Counted from the first letter of the stretch, positions 4,025 to 63,400 are shown. The stretch is DNA of 64,000 nt from Candidatus Woesearchaeota archaeon (GCA_043817645.1 JBDRGP010000014.1:11879-75878); one strand, 5' to 3'. Notes: generated by a model from the letters alone, not told the origin. Program-made: numbers and translations.

Positions 4025-4036
4025 ACATACGTGTAC

Positions 4037-4055: not shown

Positions 4056-4097
4056 ATTGTCTAAAACTTTTTAAACAATAACCGCTTAATTCTAGCA

Positions 4098-5606: not shown

Positions 5607-5848
5607 AAAAGATACTAATAACCATTCTCCTACTAAGCCTGGTCCTATTATTCGGATGTACAGAAACCCAAGAAGAAAGCGATGATACAGGAGAAACAGA
5701 TGACTCCGAGATAGAAGAAGGCCTAAGTGGAGCAGAAGAAACAGACTTAGACGAAGAAGTGACAGAAATAGAAGAATTCGAAGAAGACCTTGAAGATCTA
5801 GAGGACCTAGACGGCTTCATAGAAGAGCTAGAAGATCTAGATATATAA
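5603..5848 (+). CDS. Small, highly acidic lipoprotein-like protein
   Basis: Signal peptide ending LLFGC (lipobox-like), then a D/E-rich tail. 4-nt overlap with the upstream gene. Confidence 0.45.
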   Translation: MKKILITILLLSLVLLFGCTETQEESDDTGETDDSEIEEGLSGAEETDLDEEVTEIEEFEEDLEDLEDLDGFIEELEDLDI

Positions 5849-5865
5849 CTTCTTTTTTTATTATT

Positions 5866-6408: not shown

Positions 6409-6440
6409 ATCTTTATTAAGTACAAATCCATAATAAACCT

Positions 6441-25618: not shown

Positions 25619-25643
25619 ACAAGGAGTATATATTTATTTCTAA

Positions 25644-26588: not shown

Positions 26589-26651
26589 AATAACAACCTC
26601 CTTTTATAAAATTTATACACTCTTGTCCTATATAAATTTAATGGATTAATT

Positions 26652-27647: not shown

Positions 27648-27698
27648 CTTTATTTTTAATCTCTTTTATTCTTTTAATATGTTTTGGTCAATTTCTAA

Positions 27699-29963
27699 TC
27701 AAGGGTAATAAGTATCCCCTTGCGGTTCTCCTTTTTCTTCCTCTTCTTTTTCATCCCTCCTGCCTAAATCAACAATATCAAAAGTAGTGCTCTTATTTAA
27801 AAAATAATCGCTACTCTGCAAGGCCTTGATGTTCCACTCCTCAATATTCTCCTGAATATCTCCCTTAACCTTAAAATCACAAATAAAAGTACATCCCCTA
27901 GCAGGTTTACCTTCTATAGAACTATAACAAGTATCCAAAAGATACATCTCATCTTCATCCAAAATCATTCTTTTCAAACCAGTTTTTCCTACGCCGCCAC
28001 CTCTCCCAAACTGACAATCCTCTCCCTCAGTATCAAACCACCCTGGAACTTCTACAAACAAAGCATTAGCTTTAACCCTTCCTTCCCACTCAGCAGAATC
28101 AGGCTCCGTATTTACAATCAAAGTATAAGGATTTTCTTCACCAAGATAAATAGGTTGGGAATTTAACATATTAACCGCTAATTGAACAGGCCCACCCGTA
28201 TACTCAGAAGTAACTCTCCTGTCGCTTTTTATCAATCCCGGAAAACTAGCAGAACCTCTAACCTCATTTATGAGCTCAACTTCCCAATTATCTCTATTTG
28301 CAATCTCATCATACTTTTCTTTTCCAATAGTATAAGTCTTTAAAATAGATTCAGTTGCAAAATTTTTGTAATTCACAGTAAGAGTCGCCTTAAATGTTTC
28401 ACTCTGTTTACTAGAATCACTAATCTTAAATTTATTTTTCTCAAAATCACACCTAACAAAAAAAGTACACTCCCTATCTCTCTGAACATTTTCCACTATG
28501 TGATCTTCTTCTCCAACATTACCACAAGACGGAGAGATCTGCACATTTCCTTTCTCACCAGTTTCATTCATATATCCAAGACAATTAAACTCAATAGTAA
28601 CCTCCTCTATTCTGTTTTCAGCAGCATCATCTTTATTATCTTTAATAGAAGGGATAGCAAGATGCTTAACCTCTGCTACAAGTCTAATATCTTGTTCAGG
28701 TCTAAAAGAAGATACAACTGGCCCAAAAGAAACAAATTTCAAACCTTTAGGAGGCCCTTTCTGTTGCACATCAGGATTAGTAAACTCACCATAACTTTTA
28801 AAATATTCATCAGGATGTTGAACATAATAAAAAAATCTTTTCATTCTTGGAATAAACGCACTTTCTTCTAACTCAATCCCTCCCTTAACTCCGTATTTTT
28901 GAGCTAGTTCTGAAGTAGCAAAAGGAATTAAAAACCAAGAAGCAATTGCCAATACCACCAAAACCAAACCCAAGCTAAAATTAACATGTTTTCCCTGAGC
29001 ATTAGTTTTTAGCATTAACAAAATACCCAAAACAGCCAAGCCAATTGTAACAATCCATCTTAAATTATAAAAAGCACCCAAGGCACCAGTAGTAATTGCA
29101 ATACTTGAAAATTGGGGCGCATACCATCCAAAAAATATTCCAAAAATAATCAAAAACAAACCTAATTTCCACGTTGTATGTTTTTTCTCTTTTCCTTCTC
29201 CCGTAGTTCTAATAATCAACCACAAACCTAAAAGCGAAATAATACCCCCAATAATCCAACTAAAAGCAGGTAAATTTGCTAGAGTTGTAAAGAGTCCTGT
29301 AGTAAGAATAGATACGATATAGCCACCAATATACCATGAGATAACTGAGAGAATAACAATCAGAAATATAATTAATAAAACATAGGGATGGTTGTCCCCA
29401 AGATATCTAAAAAATTTAACAATACTGTCCCAAATGCTCTTAAAAATATCACGAAAACTTTTGCTAAAAATAAGCATAATAACTAATATCAGAAGAATCA
29501 AAGCGGGGATAGAAATCCAACCAGATGACAAAAAAGCTGGAACCTTACCTAAGAAAAAAGACCCGGAAAGAATCAAGATAAATAAACCAACGATAACTAA
29601 AGAAAGGGTAAACCAATTTCTACTAATTTTACGACCCCCAACAGTCACTTTTGGAGTTTCAGGCGAAGGAAGCCTAACTTTTTTTGATCTCGATAGTAAT
29701 TCTCTCTCCCTCAATTTCTTATCTTCTTTTCCTAATTCTCGAAGTCTTCTCCCGACATCTCGAATGTCCGCCCTCAATTTCTTCAGACTTGCATCATATT
29801 CAACAGTTTTAGCAAGATCAGTTCGCGATCTAGCTTTCTCCCTTCCAGCCCTTAATTGTTTACCTGTTTTCCTTGTTTCTCTTAGATAATTATACAATTC
29901 AGCAGCCTCTCTTTGAATTTCCTGTCTACGATCAGCCATCCTAAAAAACCCACCTCTTTTCAA
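27699..29963 (-). CDS. Large polytopic membrane protein: basic coiled-coil N-terminus, about 8 TM segments, cysteine-rich extracellular C-terminal domain
   Basis: R/K-rich helical residues 1-120, repeated TM hairpins (..LIIRTTGEGKEKKHTTWKLGLFLII.. / ..LMLKTNAQGKHVNFSLGLVLVV..), and a 400-aa C-terminal beta-rich region. Confidence 0.55.
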   Translation of the reverse strand: MKRGGFFRMADRRQEIQREAAELYNYLRETRKTGKQLRAGREKARSRTDLAKTVEYDASLKKLRADIRDVGRRLRELGKEDKKLRERELLSRSKKVRLPSPETPKVTVGGRKISRNWFTLSLVIVGLFILILSGSFFLGKVPAFLSSGWISIPALILLILVIMLIFSKSFRDIFKSIWDSIVKFFRYLGDNHPYVLLIIFLIVILSVISWYIGGYIVSILTTGLFTTLANLPAFSWIIGGIISLLGLWLIIRTTGEGKEKKHTTWKLGLFLIIFGIFFGWYAPQFSSIAITTGALGAFYNLRWIVTIGLAVLGILLMLKTNAQGKHVNFSLGLVLVVLAIASWFLIPFATSELAQKYGVKGGIELEESAFIPRMKRFFYYVQHPDEYFKSYGEFTNPDVQQKGPPKGLKFVSFGPVVSSFRPEQDIRLVAEVKHLAIPSIKDNKDDAAENRIEEVTIEFNCLGYMNETGEKGNVQISPSCGNVGEEDHIVENVQRDRECTFFVRCDFEKNKFKISDSSKQSETFKATLTVNYKNFATESILKTYTIGKEKYDEIANRDNWEVELINEVRGSASFPGLIKSDRRVTSEYTGGPVQLAVNMLNSQPIYLGEENPYTLIVNTEPDSAEWEGRVKANALFVEVPGWFDTEGEDCQFGRGGGVGKTGLKRMILDEDEMYLLDTCYSSIEGKPARGCTFICDFKVKGDIQENIEEWNIKALQSSDYFLNKSTTFDIVDLGRRDEKEEEEKGEPQGDTYYP

Positions 29964-31625: not shown

Positions 31626-32861
31626 TCACTCATCTCTCATCAAAATTTCTAACTGCTCTATAGAAAACTCATTCTTAGCAAAAATTTTAATCAAATTTTC
31701 ACCTTCTAAGATAATATCAGTAATATCCTTCTCATAAACATCATCATGAACATCCAGATAAATAACATTATCATTCACTCGAATATCCGCCCTCTTTCTG
31801 TCACCATCATTATCAAATCTCAACTTCAAAATAACTTCCTTATCCTCAATATCTTCAAACTGATCCTCATCAATAGTAAAGAAATATCTAGGGTTAAATC
31901 CTTCATCAAATTTATATTTCAAAGTTATTTGCTCAATAATATAATTTCCCTTATCAACCTCAAAAGTCAAAAAGTTAGTCCCATCAATAAAATCATCTTC
32001 ATCAGCATCAAATCTAGTTTGAGAAGCATCACAAACAACTTTGCCAAAAAAGATACTCTTCCTATTCAAAAACACTTTCAATATTCCTTGGTCCCTACCC
32101 ACTTCTAAACAATTCACAAAAAATTCAATCTCAGCATCTCCAATAGCCTCAGCTCTTGAAACCTCAAACTTTCTCAACTCTCGTCTATTCTCTAAATTAA
32201 ATTCCTTAACAATCTCTAAATCTTTCAAAACATACTTGCTGCTACTCAAAAAGGCAAATCCGACACTGCTAGCCTCAAATCTTAAATTATTTGTCTCACG
32301 TAATAAAGAAACAGGAAGTTCAACAGGCAAATCATTTACACTTAAACCACCTTCAAATATAACATTACCATTCAAAGAGATTTTTAAATCTCCCCTAGCC
32401 TCCACAATATTAAAAAATAACTTAACTTTCTTTAGATTAGCAACGTTATCAAGATTAAATCTAGCATCCTTATATTTATTCCCAAAAATTGATTTAGAAA
32501 CAGTAATTAAATTAGCTATCTTCTCAGTTTCTTGATCAGTAGTCATAAATAAATTAGCAGAAGCAAAATCTTTTTCAACATCGTCCTTTCCAGGAGGCAA
32601 AACAGTTCCAGGGTGTTCTAAAAGCAAGGTTTCTTTTTCCCCATTAGCATCCCCGTCACCATTATCACCAGCATCGCCATTAAGAAGATCATCATAATCA
32701 ATCTCTTCCCCTTCAAGCACATCTTCACGAGCTTTTTCAGGCAGCAAAATCAAATAACCAACAAAAAACAAAGCAATAAGTATAATCACTCCCGCAGCAG
32801 CAGCTGTTCCACTCGCCTCATCAGCCATACCTCTTTTATTCATATGAATTTGAAATACCAT
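31626..32861 (-). CDS. Membrane-anchored acidic protein with three tandem beta-sandwich-like repeats
   Basis: One N-terminal TM (AAAAGVIILIALFFVGYLILL), a D/G-rich linker, then three units of about 100 aa sharing ..L.F......L.I.LN...If.G...... Confidence 0.5.
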   Translation of the reverse strand: MVFQIHMNKRGMADEASGTAAAAGVIILIALFFVGYLILLPEKAREDVLEGEEIDYDDLLNGDAGDNGDGDANGEKETLLLEHPGTVLPPGKDDVEKDFASANLFMTTDQETEKIANLITVSKSIFGNKYKDARFNLDNVANLKKVKLFFNIVEARGDLKISLNGNVIFEGGLSVNDLPVELPVSLLRETNNLRFEASSVGFAFLSSSKYVLKDLEIVKEFNLENRRELRKFEVSRAEAIGDAEIEFFVNCLEVGRDQGILKVFLNRKSIFFGKVVCDASQTRFDADEDDFIDGTNFLTFEVDKGNYIIEQITLKYKFDEGFNPRYFFTIDEDQFEDIEDKEVILKLRFDNDGDRKRADIRVNDNVIYLDVHDDVYEKDITDIILEGENLIKIFAKNEFSIEQLEILMRDE

Positions 32862-37578: not shown

Positions 37579-39084
37579 ATGCCATCGTATATCAAGAAGT
37601 GCCCAGAATGTGGGGGCATTAATTTAATCCTTAATAAAGAAAAAGGAGAAGTTCTTTGCAAAGACTGTGGTCTTGTTATAGAAGAAAAACTAGTAGATTT
37701 TGGCCAAGAATGGCGTGAATTTGACTCAGACCAATCTGCAAAAAGAAGAAGAACTGGTGCTCCTATGACCTATTCTGTTCTAGGATTTGAGCCTATTATT
37801 GTTAGAAATAACGATCAAGTAAAAATAATCAAAATAAGCGACTTTATTGACGAAATAATGGAAAATAACTTCATCAACGTCGCATCCGACGGCCATTTAG
37901 AAATATTAGATATAGGCCACAAAGACTTCGAGGCAATATCTTTTGATGAAGATTACAACGTTGATTTTCAAAAAATTAGTGAAGTTTCAAGACACCCCGT
38001 TCAGGAAGCCTATGAAATCCTTCTAGACAGTGGAAAAAAAGTTGAAGTCACTGGAAGTCACAGTGTGTTTACAGAAAAAAATAAGAAAGTTATTCCGATT
38101 AGAGTAGATGAATTAAAAGAAAATCAATGTATAGTAGGTCCAAAACCCGAAGTAATCTCTCAATTAATAAGCTATGTTAACGTAGAATCAAATGGTTCAC
38201 AACTATTAATGAAAAAAAGGCTAACTACCTCTCCATTTATCCTATATAATATCAAATCAATCAAAAAAGTAAAGCCTTCCACTCCTTATGCATATGACCT
38301 AACAGTCCCGGGATATGAAAACTTCGTAGGTGGAAGAGGAGGAATATTCTTACATAACACTAAATATGACAGAGGTCTAGGAACAGACGTAGGCCAAAAA
38401 GGAGATATCTTCAAATTATCAGGAAAAGGTAGAAATAAATTCTTTAGATTAAGAAAATGGCAATACAGAATATCCACAGCTATTGAAAGAAACCTAAAAT
38501 TAGCCTTAGCAGAGCTAAAAAGAGTCGCCTCATACCTAAAATTACCTAAATCAGTAGAAGAAGAAGCATCAAGGATATACACTCTAGCAGTCCAAAGAGG
38601 ATTAGTAAGAGGAAGATCAATGGAGTCTGTAGTTGCAGGAGCATTATATGCTGCATGCAGACGTCACGAAGTTCCAAGAACATTAGATGAACTATCAGAA
38701 GCATCAGGAATAGATAAAAAAGAAATTGGAAGAACATACAGATTCGTAACAAGAGAGCTAGGAATAAGAATCCTACCAAGTAATCCTTTAGACTATATTC
38801 CAAGATTTGCATCTGCACTAAAATTAACACCAGAAACACAAAGTAAGGCAGTAGAAATCCTAGAAATGGCTGAAAACTCAGAATTAACTTCAGGAAGAGG
38901 CCCAACAGGAATAGCAGCAGCATCATTATACGTAGCAGCCCTAATCAACAATGAAAAAAAGACACAAAGAGAAGTAGCAGATATTGCGGGTGTAACAGAA
39001 GTAACAATTAGAAACAGATATAAAGAATTACTCAAAAAACTAAAATTAGAAGACAAAATAAAAAAAATAAAAAAAGCAGCTTAG
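37579..39084 (+). CDS. tfb: Transcription initiation factor TFB (TFIIB) interrupted in frame by a mini-intein
   Basis: Zinc ribbon CPECGG...CKDCG, B-finger region RRRTGAPMTY|...|TKYDRGLGT, and two cyclin repeats. Shine-Dalgarno GGGGGG at 37568-37573. Confidence 0.9.
   Translation: MPSYIKKCPECGGINLILNKEKGEVLCKDCGLVIEEKLVDFGQEWREFDSDQSAKRRRTGAPMTYSVLGFEPIIVRNNDQVKIIKISDFIDEIMENNFINVASDGHLEILDIGHKDFEAISFDEDYNVDFQKISEVSRHPVQEAYEILLDSGKKVEVTGSHSVFTEKNKKVIPIRVDELKENQCIVGPKPEVISQLISYVNVESNGSQLLMKKRLTTSPFILYNIKSIKKVKPSTPYAYDLTVPGYENFVGGRGGIFLHNTKYDRGLGTDVGQKGDIFKLSGKGRNKFFRLRKWQYRISTAIERNLKLALAELKRVASYLKLPKSVEEEASRIYTLAVQRGLVRGRSMESVVAGALYAACRRHEVPRTLDELSEASGIDKKEIGRTYRFVTRELGIRILPSNPLDYIPRFASALKLTPETQSKAVEILEMAENSELTSGRGPTGIAAASLYVAALINNEKKTQREVADIAGVTEVTIRNRYKELLKKLKLEDKIKKIKKAA
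37774..38358 (+). other. 195-aa mini-intein within tfb (Ser1 ... His-Asn, +1 Thr)
   Basis: Block B VEVTGSHSVFT (TxxH), block F/G YAYDLTVPGYENFVGGRGGIFLHN followed by T. No LAGLIDADG motif. Removal yields GAPMTYTKYDRGLGT, which matches the TFB consensus. Confidence 0.8.
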
Positions 39085-43993: not shown

Positions 43994-46972
43994 TCACTCT
44001 AAGGCCTTAGCAATTTTATTAGCTGCTTTTTTTATTTCCAGAAGTATAAAACCTAAATTAGCCTTGGGCTTAACTAAACAGACGAGTATAGCCTTCTTAC
44101 CCGCGGTTACAGCAACAAATCTTTTTGTCTTAGTATTAATGATTATATGATTCAACCCACCTCTCCCGAGCTTAGCCAAACTTTCCCTAGCAGAATTAAC
44201 CATCAAAGCAGATGTGGCAGAAAATTTTTCCGCCTTTTTAATCGCAGATATATTTGAAGCAATAATCAGTCCTTCTTTTGAAATAACACTCACTCCGCTT
44301 ACATCTCCAACACCAATCAAACCCTTCAACACCTTCACTAAAACAGCTTTTTTAGTTTCCTTACCCATCACCCTAAACCCATACTTCTCCAAGGCCTTCT
44401 TAGCCTCCACTTTAGAAAGCGCCTTTGTTTTCTTTTTTTGCTTCTTTATTACATAAGCTAGAAGTAACAAAAGCAAGAGCACTACAAGAGACCCCGTAGA
44501 TAAAGCCACCGGATTGGTTAATGCTTCTCCAATAGTTGACTGGTCTTCTACTCTTTCTTCAGAAGCACCTTCCTCACCCTGCTCCCCTACAGTACCATCA
44601 AGAATTCCTGTTGGAAAATCAGGAAAATTAGTAAATCTCTGAGATTCATCTACTCCTACACCCTCAGCAATTTCATCCCTTCTGGGAGATCCGCCACCAC
44701 CAGTGCCAATTCCGCCCCCTCCACCAGTACCAGTATCAGCTCTAACTACTAAATTTATATTCGGCGCATTACCATCTTCTGCACCTAAAGAAGTGCTGTA
44801 TCCAAGCACAGTAGCCTCACACACCACCTCTAATCTACCATAGTATGAGTTTATAGATGGTTGACTAAGAGTAAGAGTCAAAGTAATAGACTCATCTACA
44901 CCAACACTAAAATCATTATCAGAAAACTCTCCAAAATTAGAAATATCAAATCCAGTTATAGTCGGAATACATCCAGTGAGATCATAATTCCCAGTATTGT
45001 TCAACATCCAAGAGACTACTAGACTCTCATCATTCTCCATCTCTAAATCAACATCACAAGTACCCAATCCGCACACTATCCGAGAAATGGGAGTCAGAGC
45101 CTCAGGATTCCCACTTGGAGGATTAACCCCAATAGTTAGAGGAACTATAAAATCCGTTCCATCATTTATTCTCCGTATAGTAATATTCCCTTCATATGAA
45201 GTTTCATCCAAAACATCATCATCAATATCAATAACAACCTGATTCTTGAAAAGGTTAGATGTATTAAACACAGCATTACTAATATTCGCAGAATTATTAG
45301 TAAACGTTAATGTAAAATAAGTTTCATTTAGATCATAAGAAAAGTTAAGTTCATATATATCGCTAGACTGATGATACAAGCTCAAATTCCAAATTAGGGT
45401 CTGATTCTTAGGATCCGGTGCTACAATATACTCCGCAGGAAAAATAGAAATATCACTATACACAAAAAAGCTAACATTTCCCAGCACAGTATTAGTACCA
45501 TCTGAGACAGAATAAGAAAAATTCCAAATTCCATAATCATCTACAGTACAAGATGTAGAGTTCCATATTGAATAATCACCTACAGTGAAATTATTTCCCA
45601 ACTGGTTATCAACAACGTCCGTTCCATCCGGAGAAGTTATCGTAAAACTAACAAACTCAATAGTATCGCCCTCAGTATCTGAAACATTTACCTGAACAAA
45701 AAAACTATCTCCAAAAACAGGAGTAGCTATAGTATTATTTACAATAGTTCTATTAGACTCTATCACTGGCGGAAGGTTCGGAGAAACATCATTCACAGTA
45801 AATGTACCTGATGAGCTTGATGAACAAGCATTATCATCATCGCACACATAAGCATAGTAATCCTGTACTCCAATATCAGATGCGCTAGTTGTATAAGCGC
45901 AGCTTTCTGGATTTGAAGTTGTAAATGTTGAGGAATCACACCATGAACCGCCATCACATACTTGACCGGTTATAGCATCAGTCTTACATAGATGTACCTT
46001 AATCTTATCACCTGCATCAGCATCATCCCAGTCTACACTGAATGTAACATCCGAGCCTTCATCAACTGGGTCTGGTGAATCACTAGCAGAAGTTATTGTA
46101 GGAGCACTATTTAGGATGGTATAAGATATAGTAACATTATATAGCTCCGGCGAAAAAGAAATATCACTAGTCTCAAATTCCACCCTATATTGAAAGAACT
46201 GATTATCTATCTCAGATAAAGTAACTAATGTTGAATTTATATAGGGCCCATTCCAAGATTCCCCAACACAATCAGAGTCATCACATGAATGAGTATAAAC
46301 AGAAATATTTGTTAACGAAGCAAGCATAGCCAAGATACCATATTGGTTATCAGTATTCTCATCAGAATAAGCATCATTAATCAAAGTCCAGGTGGCACCG
46401 GAATCTGTGGATTTGTAAATTCTTTTATTTTTTACAGTAGCATAAAGATTATTATCCGAATCAGTTGTAATACCCCTTGGATCCTCTGGAAAAGCAGTAT
46501 CATTGAGCAAAGTCCAAATAGCACCAGAATCTGTGGATTTGTAAACTGCCCGATCACCTTGCCGTGTTATAATAAACAAACCATCGGAGTTAGAGGTTAT
46601 ACCTCCTATATCATCGCCATCAAATCTAAATACACCATTAATCTCTATCCAAGTTACTCCTAAATCAGAAGATCTCCATAAATCTCTATGATTGTCCGCA
46701 GCAAATAAATATTCAGTGTCATAATTGATTTCATACCAACCAAGATTGTCCCACTGAGCTACTGAACCGGCATCAAAGACCTTACTAGTATAATTTCCAG
46801 AATCAAACCCCTCAGAAAGATTTAGCTGTATAAAATTAGCGGTTGTATTATAAAAAGTTTGGTAATATGTGCCCTCATCAAAATCTGATGGGGAATCATC
46901 TACAAAAGAATCAGCAAGTATGAATAAGCTAAACAACAAGATCCCAACAACTAAAGGATAGTATCTCCTCAT
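43994..46972 (-). CDS. 992-aa surface receptor: signal peptide, BNR/Asp-box repeats, Ig-like domains, Gly-rich stalk, one TM helix, cytoplasmic Roadblock/LC7 domain
   Basis: SSDLGVTW, STDSGAIW and STDSGATW Asp-boxes. Many N-x-S/T sequons. GTGGGGGIGTGGGGS linker. TM LVVLLLLLLLAYVI. The C-terminal 120 aa is a close paralog of the 47773..48144 protein. Confidence 0.75.
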   Translation of the reverse strand: MRRYYPLVVGILLFSLFILADSFVDDSPSDFDEGTYYQTFYNTTANFIQLNLSEGFDSGNYTSKVFDAGSVAQWDNLGWYEINYDTEYLFAADNHRDLWRSSDLGVTWIEINGVFRFDGDDIGGITSNSDGLFIITRQGDRAVYKSTDSGAIWTLLNDTAFPEDPRGITTDSDNNLYATVKNKRIYKSTDSGATWTLINDAYSDENTDNQYGILAMLASLTNISVYTHSCDDSDCVGESWNGPYINSTLVTLSEIDNQFFQYRVEFETSDISFSPELYNVTISYTILNSAPTITSASDSPDPVDEGSDVTFSVDWDDADAGDKIKVHLCKTDAITGQVCDGGSWCDSSTFTTSNPESCAYTTSASDIGVQDYYAYVCDDDNACSSSSSGTFTVNDVSPNLPPVIESNRTIVNNTIATPVFGDSFFVQVNVSDTEGDTIEFVSFTITSPDGTDVVDNQLGNNFTVGDYSIWNSTSCTVDDYGIWNFSYSVSDGTNTVLGNVSFFVYSDISIFPAEYIVAPDPKNQTLIWNLSLYHQSSDIYELNFSYDLNETYFTLTFTNNSANISNAVFNTSNLFKNQVVIDIDDDVLDETSYEGNITIRRINDGTDFIVPLTIGVNPPSGNPEALTPISRIVCGLGTCDVDLEMENDESLVVSWMLNNTGNYDLTGCIPTITGFDISNFGEFSDNDFSVGVDESITLTLTLSQPSINSYYGRLEVVCEATVLGYSTSLGAEDGNAPNINLVVRADTGTGGGGGIGTGGGGSPRRDEIAEGVGVDESQRFTNFPDFPTGILDGTVGEQGEEGASEERVEDQSTIGEALTNPVALSTGSLVVLLLLLLLAYVIKKQKKKTKALSKVEAKKALEKYGFRVMGKETKKAVLVKVLKGLIGVGDVSGVSVISKEGLIIASNISAIKKAEKFSATSALMVNSARESLAKLGRGGLNHIIINTKTKRFVAVTAGKKAILVCLVKPKANLGFILLEIKKAANKIAKALE
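43997..44359 (-). other. Cytoplasmic Roadblock/LC7 (MglB-like) domain of the 992-aa receptor
   Basis: GVSVISKEGLIIASN....AGKKAILVCLVKPKANLGFILLEI, compared with GSSIVSRDGLLIASD....AGKTAILVCLIKPKANLGLILLSI in the standalone protein. Confidence 0.7.
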
Positions 46973-47109
46973 TTTTTCCTCTCCTCATTTAGTAGGTTTT
47001 TCATAAACAACTCAATCTTCTTAGAGAGCATAATAGCGTTATCTCTACAAAATTTCTGAAACTCATCATAGACCTTGGAGTCTACGCTCAACGTCACCTT
47101 CTTTTGCAT
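46969..47109 (-). CDS. 46-aa ribbon-helix-helix (CopG/Arc-like) protein (not in the ORF track)
   Basis: Own translation: MQKKVTLSVDSKVYDEFQKFCRDNAIMLSKKIELFMKNLLNEERKK. Its TGA overlaps the receptor ATG (ATGA). Confidence 0.6.
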   Translation of the reverse strand: MQKKVTLSVDSKVYDEFQKFCRDNAIMLSKKIELFMKNLLNEERKK

Positions 47110-47130
47110 TAAAAATAATAAACCCATCCG

Positions 47131-47182: not shown

Positions 47183-47776
47183 TCAAATTTTAACCTTAAC
47201 TTTCCGTCCGTCTACCTCAACAACACCATCCATCAGGTGTTCCATACTAGCTACCACCTTCTCATCATGCATGCCTTTCTCTATAATAAAAACTATAGAA
47301 CCATCCACATTCTTTGTTCTCGCAGTTATAATCTGAACAAATCTCCCCACAGCTTCGGGTGTAGAATACATAAGTAATGTAGAAAGACTCTGAAAAAAAA
47401 CATATTGTTTTTTATTTTTTTTATAAAAATAATTCTCTAACTCCGCCAAAGCAACAGAGATCTCATTTAAAGCCAAAGGACCAGGAACTCTTTTAATAAC
47501 AGCAGTATCGGAGACAGTATTCTGAGTTTGTGCACTATAACAATCAATAAATTTCAAATTGCCTTCCTTTTCATATTTCTCAGGAAGTATTTTATTTTTT
47601 TGCAAAGAAGATTCAACATCCTTAGGAAAATGATCTGTAGTTATAAACAAAACTGTTTTTTTATTATTCAAAGCTTTTGAAACAATCTCATAAAATATCT
47701 TATCCTTCTGAGATAATGGCGGTCCAATTACTAAAATCGCCGATCGTTCTGGTATTTTTGAAAAATAATCGATCAT
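47183..47776 (-). CDS. KaiC/RecA-like domain protein with a degenerate P-loop
   Basis: SAILVIGPPLSQKDKIFYEIV replaces GxxGxGK(S/T). VFFQSLSTLL is Walker-B-like without Asp. KaiC-like length and topology. Confidence 0.5.
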   Translation of the reverse strand: MIDYFSKIPERSAILVIGPPLSQKDKIFYEIVSKALNNKKTVLFITTDHFPKDVESSLQKNKILPEKYEKEGNLKFIDCYSAQTQNTVSDTAVIKRVPGPLALNEISVALAELENYFYKKNKKQYVFFQSLSTLLMYSTPEAVGRFVQIITARTKNVDGSIVFIIEKGMHDEKVVASMEHLMDGVVEVDGRKVKVKI

Positions 47777-48144
47777 CTTAATATTCTTGCTATTTTTTTA
47801 CTTTGAGTATTAATACTCAGTAATATTAAACCCAAATTAGCCTTAGGTTTTATTAAACAAACCAAAATCGCTGTTTTCCCTGCACCTGTAGCAATAATAC
47901 TTCCCATCTTTGAATTCACTATTATCTGATCCGGATTTCCTTTTTTTAATTCAGCAACTGCTGTTTCAGCAGCTCCAGTCATAGCTGCGGACATTGCTGC
48001 AAAAGTCTTTGTATCAACATCAGCTAAAAGATCAGACGCAATAAGTAAGCCATCCCTAGAAACTATAGAAGAACCCTCTACACCACCAACCTTTATTAAA
48101 TCCTTCAAAATTTCCATCATTTTTTCATTCTTCGTTTTTTTCAT
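47773..48144 (-). CDS. Roadblock/LC7 (MglB-like) protein
   Basis: 123 aa. VEGSSIVSRDGLLIASDL...AILVCLIKPKANLG pattern. Confidence 0.75.
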   Translation of the reverse strand: MKKTKNEKMMEILKDLIKVGGVEGSSIVSRDGLLIASDLLADVDTKTFAAMSAAMTGAAETAVAELKKGNPDQIIVNSKMGSIIATGAGKTAILVCLIKPKANLGLILLSINTQSKKIARILR

Positions 48145-48154
48145 CTTTTACACC

Positions 48155-48526
48155 TCATTTAATAAATGGAATTATATGGCCCCCAGCCCTATTCATGTGA
48201 AACAAAACCATGCCAAGATTAGCTTTTAATTTTAACAAGCAAACCAAAACAGCTCTCTTCCCAACATTACTTACTATAATTTCTCCTTTTGTGGAATTCA
48301 AAATCACCTGTAATGGATCTCCCATCTTCAACTCAGACATAACTATCCCTCTAGATTTAGCAATTTCTGCACCCATAGCCGCCAATACCCCGGAATCAGT
48401 ATTGGCCCTCAAATCAGATGCAATAAGTAGTCCATCTTTAGAAATCACCGCACATCCCTCTATATCGTCCACTTTTTGACGTAAATTTTTAATTATATCC
48501 AAAATATGGGATTTATCTGTTTTCAT
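48155..48526 (-). CDS. Roadblock/LC7 (MglB-like) protein
   Basis: 123 aa. IEGCAVISKDGLLIASDL...AVLVCLLKLKANLG. Confidence 0.75.
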   Translation of the reverse strand: MKTDKSHILDIIKNLRQKVDDIEGCAVISKDGLLIASDLRANTDSGVLAAMGAEIAKSRGIVMSELKMGDPLQVILNSTKGEIIVSNVGKRAVLVCLLKLKANLGMVLFHMNRAGGHIIPFIK

Positions 48527-49662
48527 TGTCTCTCAACCTCTCTAAATAAAACCTCAAGAGCTTTCTCCACCCCTTTTTTCTTTATTGCTACGCAAGGTAC
48601 AATAAGCTCGCTTGAAATAGACAGTTTCTTTCTAATTTGATTTAGAGATAAGGCTCCCTTAAGATCCCTTTTGTTTGCAATTATAACATGCGGTACATGG
48701 CTTAACCTACATTTCATGATCATTTCCCCCGCCCTCGCAAATGTCTCAGGTCTTGTTGAATCTACAACCAAAAACAATCCAATAGCCCTATGCCCAAGAT
48801 TTTTCAATAAAGGATCAAATCGTGCCTGTCCTGGTGTCCCAAATACATCCGCAGCATACCTTTTATAATTTACATGCCCATAATCTAAGGCCACAGTAGT
48901 TCCTAACCTGTCTACAGATGTCGCTCTTGTCGATATTGCATGTGTGAATGTTGATTTACCTGAATTATACGGACCAGTAACCAAAATCTTTGGAATATAC
49001 TCTTTTACTCCGCCAGGATTAATTATGTCAAACAAAACATCTTGCTTCTTCAGTTTTTTAATCCATCCTGCTTTTGAAACTCTAAAATAACTTCTTAATA
49101 TCACATTTTTCTCAATAGTCTCTAAATCAATAACGCAATCAAAAAAAGACCTCATATCAGCCATCATTTTTTTCTGATAAGACCACTCTGTTAATAAACC
49201 TACAACTGTAAGCTTCTTACAGGCACTTAACAATTCCTTAAGAAAAGAAACAGTTTTTTTATTCGCACCATATACATCCAAAAAAGAAGAAACAGAATCT
49301 ATAACCAAAACCGTTCCGGGTCTTAATCTCTTCACAGAATCCAACAAACTTTTTTGGACCTTAGACTGATCTGCTTTTTTTACAATCCCATCATATAAAT
49401 CTACAATCTTAAATTTACCATTTTTCTCAAATTTCGTAATATCCCAGTCATATTCCTTAAACAATTTTTTTATTAAAACAGATTTTTTATTATTCACAAC
49501 ATAAACTATCTTATCATTTTTTCGCAGTCTATTATAAATTAAATTATACAAAAATTGAAGACTCTTAACACCCGGAGTAGATACTATTAAAGTTGAAGAA
49601 CCAGTTCTAAGCCCCCCATTCAATAACTCATCTAATTTCGGAATTTCTGTCTTCAATATCAA
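48523..49662 (-). CDS. Fusion of an inactivated KaiC/RecA-like domain and a COG2229/MglA-like small GTPase
   Basis: The N-terminal half has the KaiC-like GLDELLNGGL.. entry but STPGVKS in place of the P-loop. The C-terminal half has G1 GPYNSGKS, G3 VFGTPGQARF and G4 NKRD. Confidence 0.7.
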   Translation of the reverse strand: MILKTEIPKLDELLNGGLRTGSSTLIVSTPGVKSLQFLYNLIYNRLRKNDKIVYVVNNKKSVLIKKLFKEYDWDITKFEKNGKFKIVDLYDGIVKKADQSKVQKSLLDSVKRLRPGTVLVIDSVSSFLDVYGANKKTVSFLKELLSACKKLTVVGLLTEWSYQKKMMADMRSFFDCVIDLETIEKNVILRSYFRVSKAGWIKKLKKQDVLFDIINPGGVKEYIPKILVTGPYNSGKSTFTHAISTRATSVDRLGTTVALDYGHVNYKRYAADVFGTPGQARFDPLLKNLGHRAIGLFLVVDSTRPETFARAGEMIMKCRLSHVPHVIIANKRDLKGALSLNQIRKKLSISSELIVPCVAIKKKGVEKALEVLFREVERQ

Positions 49663-49673
49663 AGGAGCACCTC

Positions 49674-50399
49674 CTAGAGATTGGCAAACAAGGTTTCCTT
49701 AGGATACACAACTATGCCTTTGTTAGTTATGTTAAACAATCTAATATTTTTATCGTGATCAGAACCCCTCATTTTCCTAACTACAATTCCCGGAACAAAC
49801 CTCTCTCCCTGTCTTAAGTGATATAACGCAATCACTCCATCAACAATAAACTCCTCAATACCATACCTAGACAAGTCAAATGTTCCCTCTTTAGTCTCTG
49901 ATATTAACAAAGAAGTACAGCCTAATTCAGACAAAGAGCTGGATAACCTTGCAAACGCTTTCCTTCGCTCCCCACTAGTTTTAGCAAGCAATCCAAACAA
50001 ACTAACAGAATCTACAACAACTCTCTTAATTTTATTTTCCCTCACGAGTTCCTTTATTTCCTCTATAACATGATCGGTTTCAGCTCCAACTTTCTTCATA
50101 AAACTATCAAGAGTCCCCAAACCTCCACCAACAAGAACAAATTTCTTAGTTTTCTCAAGTTTTTTTAGATCAAAACCAAAAGAATACATATTTTCCATCA
50201 AACTATTTTTTCCTTCCTCAAAACTAACATACAACCCAGGCTCCTTAAAGTCCTTAATGCCATTATGAATAAACTGCATACCAAGTACAGACTTGCCGGA
50301 TCCACAAGGTCCGGACAAAAGAACAGTTCTCCCTTCAATAATTCCCCCTCTCAACAACTGGTCCAATCCTTTAATTCCGGTCCTCACCCTCTTTTTCAT
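49674..50399 (-). CDS. Single-domain KaiC-like (RecA-superfamily) ATPase, apparently active
   Basis: GIKGLDQLLRGGI, Walker A SGPCGSGKS, SFEE, Walker B VVVDSV. Confidence 0.75.
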   Translation of the reverse strand: MKKRVRTGIKGLDQLLRGGIIEGRTVLLSGPCGSGKSVLGMQFIHNGIKDFKEPGLYVSFEEGKNSLMENMYSFGFDLKKLEKTKKFVLVGGGLGTLDSFMKKVGAETDHVIEEIKELVRENKIKRVVVDSVSLFGLLAKTSGERRKAFARLSSSLSELGCTSLLISETKEGTFDLSRYGIEEFIVDGVIALYHLRQGERFVPGIVVRKMRGSDHDKNIRLFNITNKGIVVYPKETLFANL

Positions 50400-50401: not shown

Positions 50402-50977
50402 TTATTTTAACACGTATTTCCTCTTTTTAAATTTTCTTGGTATGTAAAACAAGAATAACCCTGTAACAAATCCTGAAAAATGAAATAAAGTCTGTGGTAA
50501 ATCAGAATAACTTCCAGAGCCAGTAAATAACGTAAGCAAATATTTAAGAAACACAGAGGCTCCTAATAGGGGAATTAAATAGACCTTAGGAACAAAATTC
50601 GACCCTTTAATAGACAAAACGCCCAAAACACCATATATCCCCAAGGAAGCACCAGCGATAACTAATAAAGGAAACATAAACGCATCTGCGAGTGCAATCA
50701 CAAAGCTAACAGCTATAAAAAAAACAACAAAGCTCCTTCCAGCCAATCCAAATTCATAAGCTAAAAAACTCACCAAAGCAATCGCTACTATATTCTCAAT
50801 TAAATGCAAAGTGGTTATATGAACAAATGAAAACGTTATCAACCTCCAAAATTCCCCAGATAAAAACGTTTTTCCAGAAAAAGAAAATATCTCCAAGGCA
50901 CCCGGTATCAGGAAAAAAATAAACAAACTAACAAGAACTATTCCAAAAGAGATAAGAAAAACAGATTTTATTCTCAT
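50402..50977 (-). CDS. Rhomboid-family intramembrane serine protease
   Basis: WRLITFSFVHITTLHLIEN, GASLGIYGVLG (catalytic Ser), FHFSGFVTG (catalytic His). 6 TM segments. Confidence 0.8.
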   Translation of the reverse strand: MRIKSVFLISFGIVLVSLFIFFLIPGALEIFSFSGKTFLSGEFWRLITFSFVHITTLHLIENIVAIALVSFLAYEFGLAGRSFVVFFIAVSFVIALADAFMFPLLVIAGASLGIYGVLGVLSIKGSNFVPKVYLIPLLGASVFLKYLLTLFTGSGSYSDLPQTLFHFSGFVTGLFLFYIPRKFKKRKYVLK

Positions 50978-51120: not shown

Positions 51121-51368
51121 TTTTTCCTCTTTAAATGAACAAACACAAACAAAACCAACAGAATACCAACCACTCCCCACTCTACAGCCAAAGGCGTCAC
51201 ATCTTGATCTCGCGCTAAAGAGCCAGAAATGGCCATTGGTTGGATAATATAAATAAATAAAATAAATATAAGTGCCGCATAAATTAAAGTAGAAAACATC
51301 ATCTTATTAACATTTCCAGATCCATATCCCGGAATTTTCTTAATTAATTTTCTTATGTTTTTTGCCAT
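51108..51368 (-). CDS. 86-aa two-TM membrane protein
   Basis: Two hydrophobic helices flanked by basic residues. Overlaps the upstream gene by 16 nt. Confidence 0.4.
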   Translation of the reverse strand: MAKNIRKLIKKIPGYGSGNVNKMMFSTLIYAALIFILFIYIIQPMAISGSLARDQDVTPLAVEWGVVGILLVLFVFVHLKRKKWKK

Positions 51369-51901
51369 TTTCTCTTAAAAATAACTAAAAGGATAATAAT
51401 CAAAATAACAGGTAATATAACACCCACGCCCAAGGGGATCGCCTCTTCACCCTCAGCCAACTTCTCAGTTAATTCTATATCCATCTTAGTCAACGACTCC
51501 CTATCACCCTTAGTCAAAATCACAGGAATCCGAATGGTATCATCCCCATAATAATTTACTTTTTCAGGAAGTTTCTCATATAGCATATTGATCGTCAAAT
51601 ATCCCTTAAGTTCCTTTCCGGGATTTATAACATCCAATTTTAAAACAAGAGGTTCTTTCTCACTAACTCTCAAATCACTTATAGGCTCAAATTTCAGATA
51701 GTCCTTAATATTTAAAGACCGCTCAACCGAAATCAAAATAGGCTCTGTATCTGTCTCGAACGTAATCACTCCTTTCTTGCTACCCTTGCCATCAAAACTA
51801 AATACTAGCTCGTCCTCACTCAAAATGCTCCTAACTCCAGCTACAAACCCAGCTAAAAGAATCAATATAATCACAAAGTAAAACAACCTTAAATTACCCA
51901 T
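51353..51901 (-). CDS. Bitopic surface protein (signal/anchor, beta-rich ectodomain, C-terminal TM)
   Basis: N-terminal FYFVIILILLAGFVAG, C-terminal GVGVILPVILIIILLVIFKRK. Confidence 0.45.
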   Translation of the reverse strand: MGNLRLFYFVIILILLAGFVAGVRSILSEDELVFSFDGKGSKKGVITFETDTEPILISVERSLNIKDYLKFEPISDLRVSEKEPLVLKLDVINPGKELKGYLTINMLYEKLPEKVNYYGDDTIRIPVILTKGDRESLTKMDIELTEKLAEGEEAIPLGVGVILPVILIIILLVIFKRKWQKT

Positions 51902-57670: not shown

Positions 57671-57756
57671 GGGCCTGTAGTTTAGTCTGGATAGAATAGA
57701 AGGCTTCGGAGTGTAGGAGAAACCTTCAGACCTAGGTTCAAATCCTAGCAGGCCCG
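57671..57756 (+). tRNA. tRNA-Arg(UCG) with a 12-nt intron at the canonical 37/38 position. CCA is not encoded.
   Basis: Acceptor GGGCCTG/CAGGCCC, D-arm with GG, anticodon stem GAAGG/CCTTC, loop CUUCGG|intron|A, T-arm CTAGG-TTCAAAT-CCTAG, discriminator G, then TTTT. Confidence 0.85.
57710..57721 (+). other. tRNA-Arg intron (AGTGTAGGAGAA)
   Basis: CUUC (32-35) pairs with intron GGAG. There is a 3-nt AAA bulge at the 3-prime site, and the 5-prime site lies in the GGA-GUGUA loop (bulge-helix-loop). Confidence 0.75.
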
Positions 57757-60446: not shown

Positions 60447-63400
60447 TTAAGAGCATGAAGGGTTTAAAACACCATAAATCCTATAAGCAAAATCTGTTGG
60501 AGTTTCTGATTCCATCACTTCCTCAACAAAAGTCCATTCAGGATATCCAAAAAATCCACTTTGAGTAACACCTTGAGTTTGACCTTGTATCTCTCCGTTG
60601 CCAGTGGTTGCTGCATGGTTTCTTCCGCGATAATTTCCTACAAGACGGACTCCGAAATAATAATGTCCGGGCTCTAAAGTTATATCTGGAACAGAAAGAG
60701 TACCTTCATATGTTTCCATATCAAAATCAGTGCCTATTATTTCTGCTGTATAGTCAACATCTAAAAACTCAACGATAGTATTAAAATTGCTATCTAAAAT
60801 AACCACCTCAGCTGTATTATATTCCACATCTTGATGGGGTTGTCTCATACCAATCCATTTTATTTTTTGAACATCAACACATTCATCAAAAACAGCATCA
60901 TCAGCTGTCCATGACCAGGTAACAAAAGTCCGGCGTTCTGAACTTAGCATGCTTTCATGATCATATCCTTCTTCTCCTTGGTAGTTGTCCCATAATAACT
61001 GCGCTTTGAAACAATCATAGCAGCCTGTGTGTCGTTCTGTGTTTCTCAACATTGGCCACTCCAAGCTTTCATTACTAACTGCTCCGTTGGTTTTCCAAAC
61101 AAATACATCACCTAGTTCGTTAACAGCGACAATTTCTAGCACCCCATCTCCATCAACATCACCAACAGAAGCTCCTGATTGAGAAATGCAATACATTTGT
61201 TTTGGTTCAAATAATTGATTTCCATTAAAATCAAATGCAAATAATTTTCCTCCATATGTTGTGGTTATGATATCTGAATTGTCATCATTGTTAAGATCTG
61301 CTAAAACCGGTTGAACCCACACAGAAGATCCAACCTCCTGCGGCCAACCAGGCAAAACCTCTCCATATCTATCTAAAACATATATATCTCCACCGAAGAA
61401 ACCTCTAATATTGCCAAAGACTATTTCATTACTTCCATCATTATTTAAATCACCAGTAGCCAAAGAAAGAGGAGTTAACTGATAACCACCACCATTCCAA
61501 TCCCACTCCCGAATGCCTGTATGATGATAACAAGCCTCCCCCTGACCCCTACTAAAGCAAATCTCAAGATCAAAATCGCCGTCCATATCCAACATGACTG
61601 GATCACCGTAAGGAAAAAGAGGAACATCAAAATCAATTTCAAGATTACCAATGCTATCAAAGATTGCAACATGTGATTCTATGGTATACCAGTCATCAAG
61701 CCCATTTGGGAAATAATAATAAATTAATATTACTTCTTTTTCCCCGTCAGCATCAACATCTCCGACTGTAGGGGAGTAGAATAAACGGTAGAGGGGGTCG
61801 TTTCTCGCTGGTAATGGCCAGTTTCCAAAATTATTTCCTTGATAATCAAAAATATATGTTAAGGCACTTTCATCATAACCAGAAGCTATAATCTCTAAAT
61901 ATCCGTCATTATTTAAATCAACAAGCGACATTGAAGAGAAAAATAATCCCCAGAGGCTTGCATTTAGGGGAAGATCACATTGAATGGGCCATCCTTGTAC
62001 AGGAGTTCCATCAGATTCCCATGCATAAGCACATCGATCCATTGGATTTCCTTCTTGATCTGTTGTGTTCTCAGGCCACTGAGTCCAGCCTGCAACTATT
62101 TCCATATCCCCATCATTATCAATATCACCTACTGAGACTGAATGATATGCCCCATTACCCATTATCCCACCTCCAAGAGTTTGGGGCCAGCCGGGAAGTG
62201 GAGTTCCATCAGAAAAATATGCAAAAACCTCATGGGATCCTCTAATAAAAATTTCATCAGAGCCATCATTATTTATATCAGCTAAGGTCGGGGTGAACCC
62301 TGCCCATAACTCCCACTCCTGTCCAAGATTAATTGGCCATCCATCCATCAAGTCGTGATCAACATTTAGGTATCCGTAATCTTTAAAAATTCTTCCTTGG
62401 GTATCGAAAACTTTCAATCTAATTAAATACTCTCCCCCACTAATCTCTGTCAAATCTAAATTATCATACACCACATCATCTGAAGGAACTTCATAAGAAA
62501 CAGTTATCAAACTCCAGTCGGCTTCGTCTAATTCAACTAATGGAACATTAGAAGCATAAGCCAACTCATAATATTCAAAATTGTTTCCAGTTATCTCTCC
62601 AGTTATATCAATTATTAACTGGTTTTGCTCAATGGGATCTAAATTTATAATCATCGGATTCTCGAAAAATACAGATTCTAATGCATTCACCAAACCAAAA
62701 CCTTGTGTAGTTACTTTCTCGGGATTCGGCAATAGCGCTGCAGTATTCTTTATTAATGTCTTAATTTCTTCCGCATTATACCTGGGATTTCTTTGTTTTA
62801 TCAAAGCAGCTAATCCAGCAACATGTGGTGTTGCCATACTTGTTCCAGAGATAGAGGTATGTTCATCATCCAAGCATTCCCTATCACTCCATGCATCTTC
62901 CCACTGCGCAGCACATATGTTAACACCGGGAGCAACAATGTCTGGTTTAATTAAAGAAACTTTGTTCCCCAAAGCATCTTCCCAAATAACTGGCCCTTTT
63001 GAACTAAAATCAGCCATATTCAATTCTTTATCAACTGCACCAACAGTAATTGCTTTTCTTGCTGTTCCTGGTGAGCCAATAGTTCCTTCCCCATAATCGT
63101 TTCCTGCAGCAACAACGGCAACGACCCCTAAATCAACAGCATTATCAATAGCTAATGACATATCATCATCAGGATTCCCCCCACCACCCAAGCTTAAACT
63201 TATAACATCTAAATGATCTGAAAAATCTCCATCTTGATTAGGATCAACGCTTCTATCAATTGCTGCAATAATATCATTAAACCAACCACCGCCATACTCA
63301 TCTAATACTTTATAAGCAACAATATCTGCGTCAGGAGCAACGCCTTTCAAGACCCCATCACCAGCAGCTGTTGCTGCAACATGGGTTCCATGCCCCATAT

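Follow-up and report, generated by a model that had tools for sequence, protein, structure and literature searches.

A predicted archaeal surface receptor ending in a Roadblock domain, encoded beside an MglA-type GTPase and KaiC-like ATPases

The pairing of small GTPases with Roadblock regulators is of ancient origin, and the input to the prokaryotic examples is largely obscure, even at the step from sensor to Roadblock protein in the actinobacterial conservon. How such a module might be addressed from the cell surface is the question raised by a 64,000-nucleotide (nt) stretch of DNA, hereafter the window, from Candidatus Woesearchaeota archaeon (GCA_043817645.1 JBDRGP010000014.1:11879-75878), a small, symbiotic-type DPANN (Nanoarchaeota/Woesearchaeota-like) archaeon. 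The gene in question encodes a predicted membrane protein, which we call the receptor, whose large ectodomain is joined through a single transmembrane helix to a C-terminal Roadblock/LC7 domain. We consider it probable, on computational grounds, that this is a surface receptor or adhesin, with its Roadblock domain linking what happens at the surface to an MglA-like GTPase/KaiC module. In support, the fusion is conserved at the end of an operon that also encodes an MglA-family GTPase, two standalone Roadblock proteins (R1 and R2), an active KaiC and a second, inactivated KaiC, and the fused Roadblock domain is about as conserved between genomes (54-57% identity) as the operon GTPase (57-59%). 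The fusion of an ectodomain to a Roadblock domain points to the latter as the entry point of membrane input in such systems.

Architecture and conservation of the receptor

A preliminary description of the window had proposed this architecture, and the open reading frame (ORF) of 992 amino acids (aa) is present with the coordinates and features then listed all correct. The receptor was examined by hydropathy, AlphaFold2 (AF2) modelling with its predicted local distance difference test (pLDDT) scores, Foldseek and Pfam, giving the following parts.

43994..46972 (-): whole receptor gene, encoding a 992-aa type I membrane protein; uninterrupted ORF, orthologues with the same architecture
46907..46972 (-): signal peptide, aa 1-22 (MRRYYPLVVGILLFSLFILADS); hydropathy peak at aa 4-22, AF2 helix at aa 5-20
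46118..46906 (-): distal ectodomain, aa 23-285; beta-sandwich with an inserted BNR/Asp-box region of about three blades (Asp-boxes at nt 46388-46672)
45773..46117 (-): Cys-rich PKD/immunoglobulin (Ig)-like module, aa 286-400, six Cys; AF2 pLDDT >90, Foldseek match to 4xed
44738..45772 (-): membrane-proximal ectodomain, aa 401-745; all-beta and sequon-rich, probably several Ig-like sandwiches (AF2, low confidence)
44510..44737 (-): flexible stalk, aa 746-821; poly-Gly tract and acidic linker, disordered in AF2
44447..44509 (-): single transmembrane helix, aa 822-842 (VALSTGSLVVLLLLLLLAYVI); hydropathy 2.58, AF2 helix, charge asymmetry
44366..44446 (-): Lys-rich juxtamembrane linker, aa 843-869; LEKxGFxV motif conserved in the orthologue alignment
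43997..44365 (-): cytoplasmic Roadblock/LC7 (MglB-type) domain, aa 870-992; Pfam PF03259, AF2, Foldseek

The identity of the C-terminal domain is borne out by sequence and structure alike. Pfam Robl_LC7 (PF03259) matches aa 881-966 at E=3.5e-9 (36.7 bits against a cutoff of 23; profile positions 5-90 of 91), and an AF2 model of aa 400-992 has a long helix across the membrane followed by a Roadblock fold at pLDDT >95, in the order alpha-beta-beta-alpha-beta-beta-beta-alpha over aa ~874-992. Foldseek aligned this domain with Roadblock3 of the Asgard archaeon Prometheoarchaeum (9jue; TM-score 0.93, root-mean-square deviation 1.3 A), with MglB at TM-scores of 0.77-0.89, including the MglA-bound structures 3t12, 6izw and 6h5b, and further with a Thorarchaeota Roadblock, a Streptomyces Roadblock domain and LAMTOR p14/MP1 (1veu, TM-score 0.82). 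A sequence search of the PDB returned matches from E=4e-11 to 1.5e-4, including 9jue (4.3e-11), 7f8m, a Thorarchaeota Robl protein and CvnB5 (3leq; E=3.4e-5). Roadblock domains dimerise and act as platforms, GTPase-activating proteins (GAPs) or guanine nucleotide exchange factors for small GTPases. MglB, CvnB/MfpD and Ragulator exemplify such regulators and platforms (PMC4316618; PMC13343842; PMC3747258).

A signal peptide and one transmembrane helix had been foreseen, and the hydropathy scan detected just two strong segments, aa 4-22 (after an N-terminal MRR) and aa 822-842, both of them helical in the AF2 models; all receptor orthologues have a hydrophobic N-terminal segment. The 20 residues before the transmembrane helix contain one K/R and five D/E, and the 20 residues after it contain nine K/R (KKQKKKTK...), an excess that by the positive-inside rule places the C-terminal 150 residues in the cytoplasm, as the preliminary description had supposed. 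Residue composition agrees with an ectodomain outside and a tail inside, the former having 1.3% Lys, 10.5% Asp, 20.7% Ser+Thr and 8% Asn and the latter 20% Lys, and 13 of the 14 Cys lie in the ectodomain. So do 23 of the 24 N-x-S/T sequons, compared with 12.8 +/- 3.0 in shuffled ectodomains (about 1.8 times the expectation, with 3 of 5000 shuffles reaching 23); an enrichment in sequons had been claimed and stands, although the 'dozens' first reported slightly overstated their number. These features support a predicted type I topology with the ectodomain out and the Roadblock domain in.

Three exact S-x-D-x-G-x-x-W motifs, at aa 101, 146 and 188, are spaced 42-45 aa apart, which is a blade spacing, and lie where they had been placed (nt 46388-46672). 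They exceed chance, as none of 5000 ectodomain shuffles contained more than one motif (mean 0.011). The NCBIfam BNR glycosylhydrolase model matches aa 95-202 in part and homologues of the distal ectodomain carry Sortilin-Vps10 (PF15902), while no Pfam propeller model was significant on the receptor itself. An AF2 model of aa 1-420, built on an alignment of ectodomain homologues (mean pLDDT 81), shows the signal helix and then a beta-sandwich in the distal ectodomain (pLDDT 60-90), into which about three four-stranded units are set at aa ~86-200 (pLDDT 62-86). Foldseek aligned ~135-142 columns of this Asp-box part to the seven-bladed BNR propeller Ycf48 and to sialidases in the PDB. The suggestion of a propeller-like and Ig-like ectodomain is therefore right as regards a modular BNR/Ig make-up, and the Asp-box region appears propeller-like by ancestry, but it is modelled as about three blades rather than as a closed propeller.

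Adjoining this region is an Ig-like sandwich (aa ~290-395, pLDDT >90) that Foldseek matched to the archaeal PKD domain 4xed at a TM-score of 0.68 over 110 columns, and on which Pfam gave no match; some proteins with copies of this Cys-rich module have Ig-type Pfam matches in another part of the chain, as P0022 does (PF25788, aa 751-791). Copies of the module, 40-65% identical and often in tandem, occur in surface proteins whose annotated sources include Aenigmarchaeota, Nealsonbacteria and Actinomycetota. Next to the membrane, ~350 aa are modelled as all-beta (pLDDT 30-80) with weak Foldseek resemblance to Ig arrays, e.g. NCAM2 and RET. Disorder then spans aa ~746-825, including the poly-Gly stalk TGTGGGGGIGTGGGGS noted earlier, and the poly-Gly tract is conserved in orthologues L003, P0242 and P0243.

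The fusion recurs in other genomes. An exhaustive phmmer search of 1.84 billion representatives with the cytoplasmic 148 aa of the receptor gave 662 matches, the best four of which (E=1e-27 to 4e-33, 54-56% identity) are proteins of 726-893 aa matched at their extreme C-terminus. These four further 50%-identity clusters (P0241-P0244), which answer the call in the preliminary description for other proteins with a transmembrane helix and a C-terminal Robl_LC7 domain, each have an N-terminal hydrophobic segment and one transmembrane helix before the Roadblock domain. The receptor-family sequences are public and generically annotated, NCBI naming two of the four only 'roadblock/LC7 domain-containing protein [Nanoarchaeota archaeon]'. 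Neighbourhoods collected via homologues of the operon GTPase and via the receptors themselves added the following loci.

L001 (GCA_038045665.1): receptor of 872 aa, same gene order
L003/L004/L005 (ENA): receptors of 1099 aa (L003) and 1084 aa (L004); the L005 gene is cut by a contig end
L008 (GCA_964432435.1): receptor of 893 aa, same gene order
L014/L015: receptor of 809 aa, same gene order

Across the orthologues (726-1099 aa) the layout is the same, and wherever context is known the gene occupies the same operon slot, the receptors concerned (reported at 872-1099 aa) following directly after Robl-Robl-DUF7504. Counted with these four groups of loci, P0242 is a fifth cluster with the fusion, and the family is carried by three GTDB species representatives. 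BLASTP showed 46% identity, unbroken over receptor aa ~400-991, against L003/L004 and P0243, across both the ectodomain-transmembrane and the transmembrane-Roadblock junctions.

The preliminary description had allowed that the fusion might be an assembly chimera. That a third standalone Roadblock gene had been artificially joined, by assembly or gene calling, to a surface-protein gene unrelated to it seemed conceivable from a word-index search in which the full-length receptor matched only itself. That search, however, scored only the 8000 candidates sharing most words, mostly BNR proteins, and so missed the orthologues; the receptor is not a singleton, since phmmer and synteny found orthologues with 46% identity over 600 aa. 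With an uninterrupted ORF, homology continuous across the junction, a layout shared by four 50%-identity clusters and L003/L004 from different samples and assemblers (NCBI metagenome-assembled genomes, ENA, Logan), recurrence at the same slot in L001, L003/L004, L008 and L014/L015, and its carriage by three species representatives, a chimera is effectively refuted by sequence comparison and has in our judgement a negligible chance of being correct. As far as shown, the fusion is restricted to a narrow DPANN clade.

The ectodomain is a mosaic by comparison with the conserved tail, the receptor sharing aa 1-330 with L008 and P0242 (30-62% identity) and aa 400-991 with L003 and P0243, and the sequence immediately before the transmembrane helix is poorly conserved among orthologues. 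Receptor or adhesin families would be expected to show just this combination of a conserved cytoplasmic domain and a shuffled ectodomain.

The operon and its Roadblock domains

The operon lies entirely on the minus strand in the order rhomboid, KaiC, KaiC-GTPase, R1, R2, DUF7504, 52-aa ORF and receptor, and its junctions are overlaps or gaps of 2-11 nt except for the last. The genes preceding the receptor are as follows.

50402..50977 (-): rhomboid intramembrane protease; Pfam Rhomboid E=9.6e-9, GASLG Ser motif and HFSGFVTG His motif
49674..50399 (-): single-domain, bona fide KaiC-like ATPase; Pfam KaiC E=7.9e-66, intact Walker A GPCGSGKS
48523..49662 (-): fusion of an inactivated KaiC-like domain and an MglA-family small GTPase, 379 aa; Pfam KaiC E=4.9e-26 plus Arf/Ras
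48155..48526 (-): standalone Roadblock R1; Pfam E=2.3e-12
47773..48144 (-): standalone Roadblock R2, best conserved of the three Roadblock domains; Pfam E=5.4e-18
47183..47776 (-): inactivated KaiC-like protein; Pfam DUF7504 E=9e-18, KaiC E=1.2e-9
46969..47127 (-): 52-aa ORF, possible ribbon-helix-helix DNA-binding protein; overlaps the receptor start codon by 4 nt

The GTPase has the motifs G1 GPYNSGKS, G3 GTPGQ and G4 NKRD. GTPGQ, in which the canonical Asp of G3 is missing, is present in 117 of 120 homologues and is, according to Wuichet and Sogaard-Andersen, the conserved G3 motif of MglA groups 2-5, which co-evolve with MglB/Roadblock partners (PMC4316618), and we assign the operon GTPase to the MglA type on this basis; by its operon partner the receptor Roadblock is then of the MglB type. 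Archaeal group 4 MglA was reported to have no conserved neighbours in a survey that left out proteins >240 aa (PMC4316618), a limit that would have removed the KaiC-GTPase fusion. This fusion is widespread, occurring in Nanoarchaeota, Woesearchaeota, Methanothermobacter, Methanocellales, Methanoperedens, Altiarchaeota and Bathyarchaeota. Pfam and motif scans of the operon proteins place an active KaiC, 69% identical in L001 and L003 and with an intact Walker A motif, alongside two KaiC-like domains lacking it: the N-domain of the KaiC-GTPase fusion has no GK[ST] (STPGVKSL), and the DUF7504 protein, kept in L001, L003, L008, L014, and also L006 and L013, has GPPLSQKDK instead of GxxxxGK[ST].

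The 52-aa ORF has a weak DUF6364/ribbon-helix-helix-like match (E=2.4e-4, short of the Pfam cutoff); in L014 the corresponding slot is taken by a 146-aa ORF (1252-1692), and the C-terminal part of the latter shares 68% identity with the 52-aa ORF. L003/L004/L005 and L014 have an ORF of 74-78 aa with a weak HTH_11 match (53% identity; L003 12569-12793, L014 1019-1255); the window 52-aa ORF and the L003 74-aa ORF are not homologous to each other, each having a homologue in L014. These small DNA-binding-like ORFs before the receptor could be a putative transcriptional output or autoregulator. A scan for sigma-70 promoters and terminators gave no enrichment over shuffles, and such a scan is in any case inapplicable to archaea. 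Roadblock genes have been reported in archaeal type IV pilus loci (PMC4858521); among the ten large window ORFs scanned there were no type IV pilus or archaellum genes.

The fused domain was proposed to be a paralogue of the two standalone Roadblock proteins, and its identity is 47% with R2 (over 121 aa) and 34% with R1, while R1 and R2 share 47% with each other. The further claim that it arose by recent duplication and fusion is not upheld. It had rested on a 23-residue stretch differing at five positions from R2, and the receptor does match R2 at 18 of 23 positions there, but this is because the stretch (AGKxAILVCLxKPxANLG) is conserved throughout the archaeal Roadblock family, Woesearchaeota and Micrarchaeota members included. 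Across genomes the fused domain is 41-46% identical to R2 with R2 of the same genome no closer, and in the phylogeny that had been suggested, here a neighbour-joining tree of R1, R2 and fused domains from four genomes, each kind forms its own clade. We therefore reject a recent duplication, given 47% whole-domain identity, a separate fused clade and a stretch conserved family-wide; the fused clade indicates that the fusion predates the divergence of these genomes. Between genomes, R2 is 77-80% identical and R1 40-48%, with the fused domain and the KaiC-GTPase protein falling between them at the values given above and the distal ectodomain showing little or no identity.

Several operons related to that of the window contain separate sensors. 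In the woesearchaeote L006 the order is KaiC-GTPase, a small protein with three transmembrane helices, Robl, a dCache_1-HAMP sensor with two transmembrane helices, Robl, a PAS protein, DUF7504 and a receiver domain. L012 has type IV pilus-like ATPase and platform genes, KaiC-GTPase, Robl, a HAMP sensor, a solute-binding protein, a second HAMP sensor directly before Robl, and PAS; L013 has Robl, FIST, a HAMP sensor and DUF7504; and the Methanothermobacter operon has Robl, KaiC-GTPase, two KaiC genes and a TPR protein but no sensor. In L012 the KaiC-GTPase gene is directly preceded by the pilus-like genes (3121-6867), which encode a T2SSE ATPase and two T2SSF platform proteins, an arrangement that echoes bacterial MglA control of type IV pili. 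The HAMP sensors (L006 11956-13215; L012 9911-10816 and 12123-13097; L013 10167-11057) have two transmembrane helices and no known output domain, and share a ~70-aa post-HAMP tail (DRNDLLxSLLxxFKGKFGNxATILxRKxxxELxxKNPRIxxILPxSL) belonging to no Pfam family, which is a candidate Roadblock- or GTPase-docking module. Their position directly before or close to Robl genes in L006, L012 and L013 shows that membrane sensing combined with Roadblock proteins is the general logic of these operons, the difference being that in the window's clade one polypeptide combines the membrane sensor with a Roadblock copy, whereas the sister lineages have separate HAMP sensors. Throughout the operon family, an MglA-type GTPase and KaiC-like ATPases recur together with Roadblock proteins and with sensors located in the membrane or the cytoplasm.

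We also observed a second, unrelated-looking family of multi-pass membrane proteins of 650-1760 aa that end in a Roadblock domain (P0250, P0265, P0266, P0275, P0278, P0282, P0295, P0303, P0314 and P0367), with named sources in Micrarchaeota (P0250, P0265, P0303). Apart from zinc ribbons in one member, these have no Pfam domain beyond Robl.

Possible routes from the surface to the GTPase

In the mechanism we favour, the receptor Roadblock would pair with itself and/or with R1/R2 at the membrane, as Roadblock domains act as dimers. An ectodomain event (ligand binding, host-surface contact or clustering) would then alter engagement of this Roadblock platform with the GTPase domain of the KaiC-GTPase protein, which would set the GTP/GDP state or membrane localisation of the GTPase, and that state would in turn govern assembly or activity of the attached and neighbouring KaiC-like ATPases. 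DPANN archaea depend on contact with other cells, which makes the variable ectodomain, predicted to be glycosylated and outward-facing, a candidate for host recognition.

Several observations weigh against a signalling receptor. A 210-nt gap with the small ORF separates the DUF7504 gene from the receptor, making co-transcription uncertain, and the multi-pass Roadblock proteins of Micrarchaeota are not beside GTPase genes in three loci (L009-L011), so that a Roadblock anchored in the membrane does not in every case require a GTPase encoded next to it. No ligand-binding domain of known specificity is recognisable in the ectodomain, whose role could be one of adhesion or structure alone. Finally, the fused Roadblock may be a non-catalytic, MglC-like recruiting partner instead of a GAP, because the Asp of the Asp-Gly pair in the first beta-hairpin, which is conserved in MglB proteins coupled to group 2-5 MglA (PMC4316618), is Glu in the receptor (SKEGL, compared with SKDGL in R1 and SRDGL in R2) and variable (D/E/S, Ser in L003) in its orthologues. 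Among standalone relatives this position is D 61 times and E 12 times.

The last two points bear on the possibility that the protein passes no outside signal inward: an adhesin or structural protein whose Roadblock tail merely tethers R1/R2, the GTPase and KaiC to the membrane, in the manner of the lipidated LAMTOR1 in Ragulator, or an inside-out arrangement in which the GTPase would control where the adhesin is sited or clustered. We regard this as unlikely, if by no means far-fetched. The ectodomain is composed of adhesin-type modules, namely BNR blades and PKD/Ig repeats of the kind found in tandem in other surface proteins of DPANN and Candidate Phyla Radiation organisms; its distal part is swapped among orthologues, as in surface adhesins under diversifying selection; a single transmembrane helix with a disordered stalk would be a poor conformational conduit unless it oligomerises; the Asp-Gly pair is not kept in the fused domain; and MglA/MglB systems are polarity and localisation devices (PMC4316618). 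Set against this, the sister operons hold true sensor modules (dCache_1, HAMP, PAS, FIST and a solute-binding protein) in the equivalent neighbourhood, indicating that the operon family processes external or internal signals, and single-pass receptors commonly signal by ligand-induced dimerisation, which would suit a dimerising Roadblock.

The rhomboid gene introduces another route. Rhomboids cleave single-pass membrane proteins, and this one might cut the receptor in or near its transmembrane helix, shedding the ectodomain and/or freeing the Roadblock domain to join R1/R2. Its gene precedes the KaiC gene by 2 nt, the protein has Ser and His motifs that could plausibly be catalytic, and the N-terminal half of the receptor's transmembrane helix is rich in small residues (ALSTGS). 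The rhomboid is kept at the same position in L001, L003, L004 and L005 (59-63% identity), that is, in three of the four fusion lineages with known upstream sequence, compared with none of four operons without a fused receptor (L006, L007, L012, L013). The exception, L008, has a fused receptor without an adjacent rhomboid or standalone KaiC; the sample is tiny (three lineages against one); the sequence before the transmembrane helix is, as noted, poorly conserved; and the rhomboid could have another substrate or be a housekeeping enzyme. Regulated intramembrane proteolysis is accordingly a long shot as the principal explanation, and it is compatible with a signalling receptor rather than exclusive of it. 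Just upstream of the rhomboid is a gene for a second conserved type I membrane protein (51353-51901, minus strand; 182 aa), 46-53% identical in L001 and L003; like the receptor, it is a candidate substrate of the rhomboid.

The known system most like the window operon in its working is the conservon, or actinobacterial G-protein system, consisting of the CvnA sensor kinase, the Roadblock CvnB as GAP, CvnC and the MglA-group-2 GTPase CvnD (PMC4316618; PMC13343842). In both, a membrane sensor, an MglB-type Roadblock and an MglA-family GTPase with GTPGQ are encoded together, and the conservon's Roadblock is thought to link sensor to GTPase. The window system differs in that sensor and Roadblock are one polypeptide in an archaeal host, the receptor has a single-pass, glycoprotein-like ectodomain in place of a HAMP or histidine-kinase module, and the GTPase is fused to an inactivated KaiC in an operon with KaiC-like ATPases. 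No match to HAMP, HisKA or HATPase was detected in the receptor or in any operon protein scanned, nor was there a Pfam match to the CvnC family (DUF742) among the operon proteins scanned. With these two defining features, the HAMP-histidine-kinase sensor and DUF742, absent, the window system should not be counted as a conservon member.

The MglA/MglB(/MglC) systems of Myxococcus and Thermus are alike in Roadblock fold and in serving one MglA-family GTPase with two or more Roadblock paralogues. MglB and MglC are, however, soluble and brought to the poles by other proteins, whereas in the window one paralogue is covalently membrane-anchored with a large ectodomain; and the window GTPase has the GTPGQ of groups 2-5, while the Myxococcus and Thermus MglA are of the group-1 type. 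The catalytic mechanism of groups 2-5 is uncharacterised (PMC4316618). Ragulator-Rag offers an analogy only, as a membrane-tethered multi-Roadblock platform that positions and regulates small GTPases; its Roadblock heterodimers, LAMTOR2/3 and 4/5, are tethered by the separate, lipidated LAMTOR1 rather than by a transmembrane helix of the same chain, and the window GTPase has no homology to Rag beyond the superfamily. The fusion may also bear on the origin of membrane-tethered Roadblock platforms such as Ragulator. Plexins combine an extracellular propeller-type module and Ig-like domains with a single transmembrane helix, and their cytoplasmic domain acts directly on a small GTPase as its regulator. 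The likeness is again one of analogy and not of homology, plexins being eukaryotic and their GAP domain RasGAP-like, not Roadblock.

Archaeal KaiC-centred signalling networks, reportedly set out by Makarova, Galperin and Koonin in 2017, are said to combine, within single operons, active KaiC and inactivated KaiC-like domains with putative input and output proteins, and the window operon likewise pairs an active KaiC with inactivated KaiC-like domains. The fusion links KaiC-like ATPases, which have been proposed as archaeal signalling hubs, to a surface receptor.

The preliminary description had held that Roadblock domains are soluble regulators and that one serving as a receptor's output was undescribed. 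The first part was too sweeping, as the conservon and response-regulator-Roadblock fusions, REC-Robl_LC7 (PMC4316618) and REC-NitrOD3 (PMC5847659), are known. In the latter the C-terminal Roadblock output is similar, but the input is a kinase-phosphorylated cytoplasmic receiver, not an ectodomain across the membrane. The second part stands in that our literature search, outside which Makarova et al. 2017 fell so that an earlier mention is possible, brought up no account of this operon or of a Roadblock joined to a receptor or a transmembrane segment. The Roadblock as signalling output is thus already known, and what is new is its covalent fusion to a single-pass surface receptor, an architecture that would surprise specialists in prokaryotic GTPases and archaeal signalling while extending a known logic. 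The fusion also gives a simple construct, the cytoplasmic tail together with R1, R2 and the GTPase.

A more specific version of the favoured reading can be offered tentatively, as a possibility rather than an expectation. By analogy with plexins in layout and Ragulator in platform, the receptor may represent a hitherto undescribed DPANN class of single-pass receptors that directly regulate an MglA-type GTPase through Roadblock pairing with two soluble paralogues, and would then be the prokaryotic equivalent of GAP/GEF signalling coupled to receptors. With the same reserve, host contact might be converted to polarity or KaiC signalling, possibly with a rhomboid step, as part of a wider sensor-Roadblock-MglA-KaiC pathway that would include the HAMP-tail sensors and the Micrarchaeota multi-pass proteins.

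Other genes in the window

Elsewhere in the window, a TFIIB gene (37579-39084, plus strand) is interrupted by an intein, its product comprising a Zn-ribbon, an Intein_splicing match at aa 82-260 and TFIIB repeats. An 86-nt tRNA (57671-57756, plus strand; Rfam, 55 bits), for which ARAGORN named no anticodon, may be an intron-containing or atypical archaeal tRNA. No Pfam family matches at E<=1e-5 in five ORFs of 419, 314, 331, 754 and 411 aa (24359-29963 and 31626-32861, both minus strand). The gene at 60447-63860 (minus strand) encodes a further large protein of the surface or secreted kind, a 1137-aa subtilase with FG-GAP repeats.

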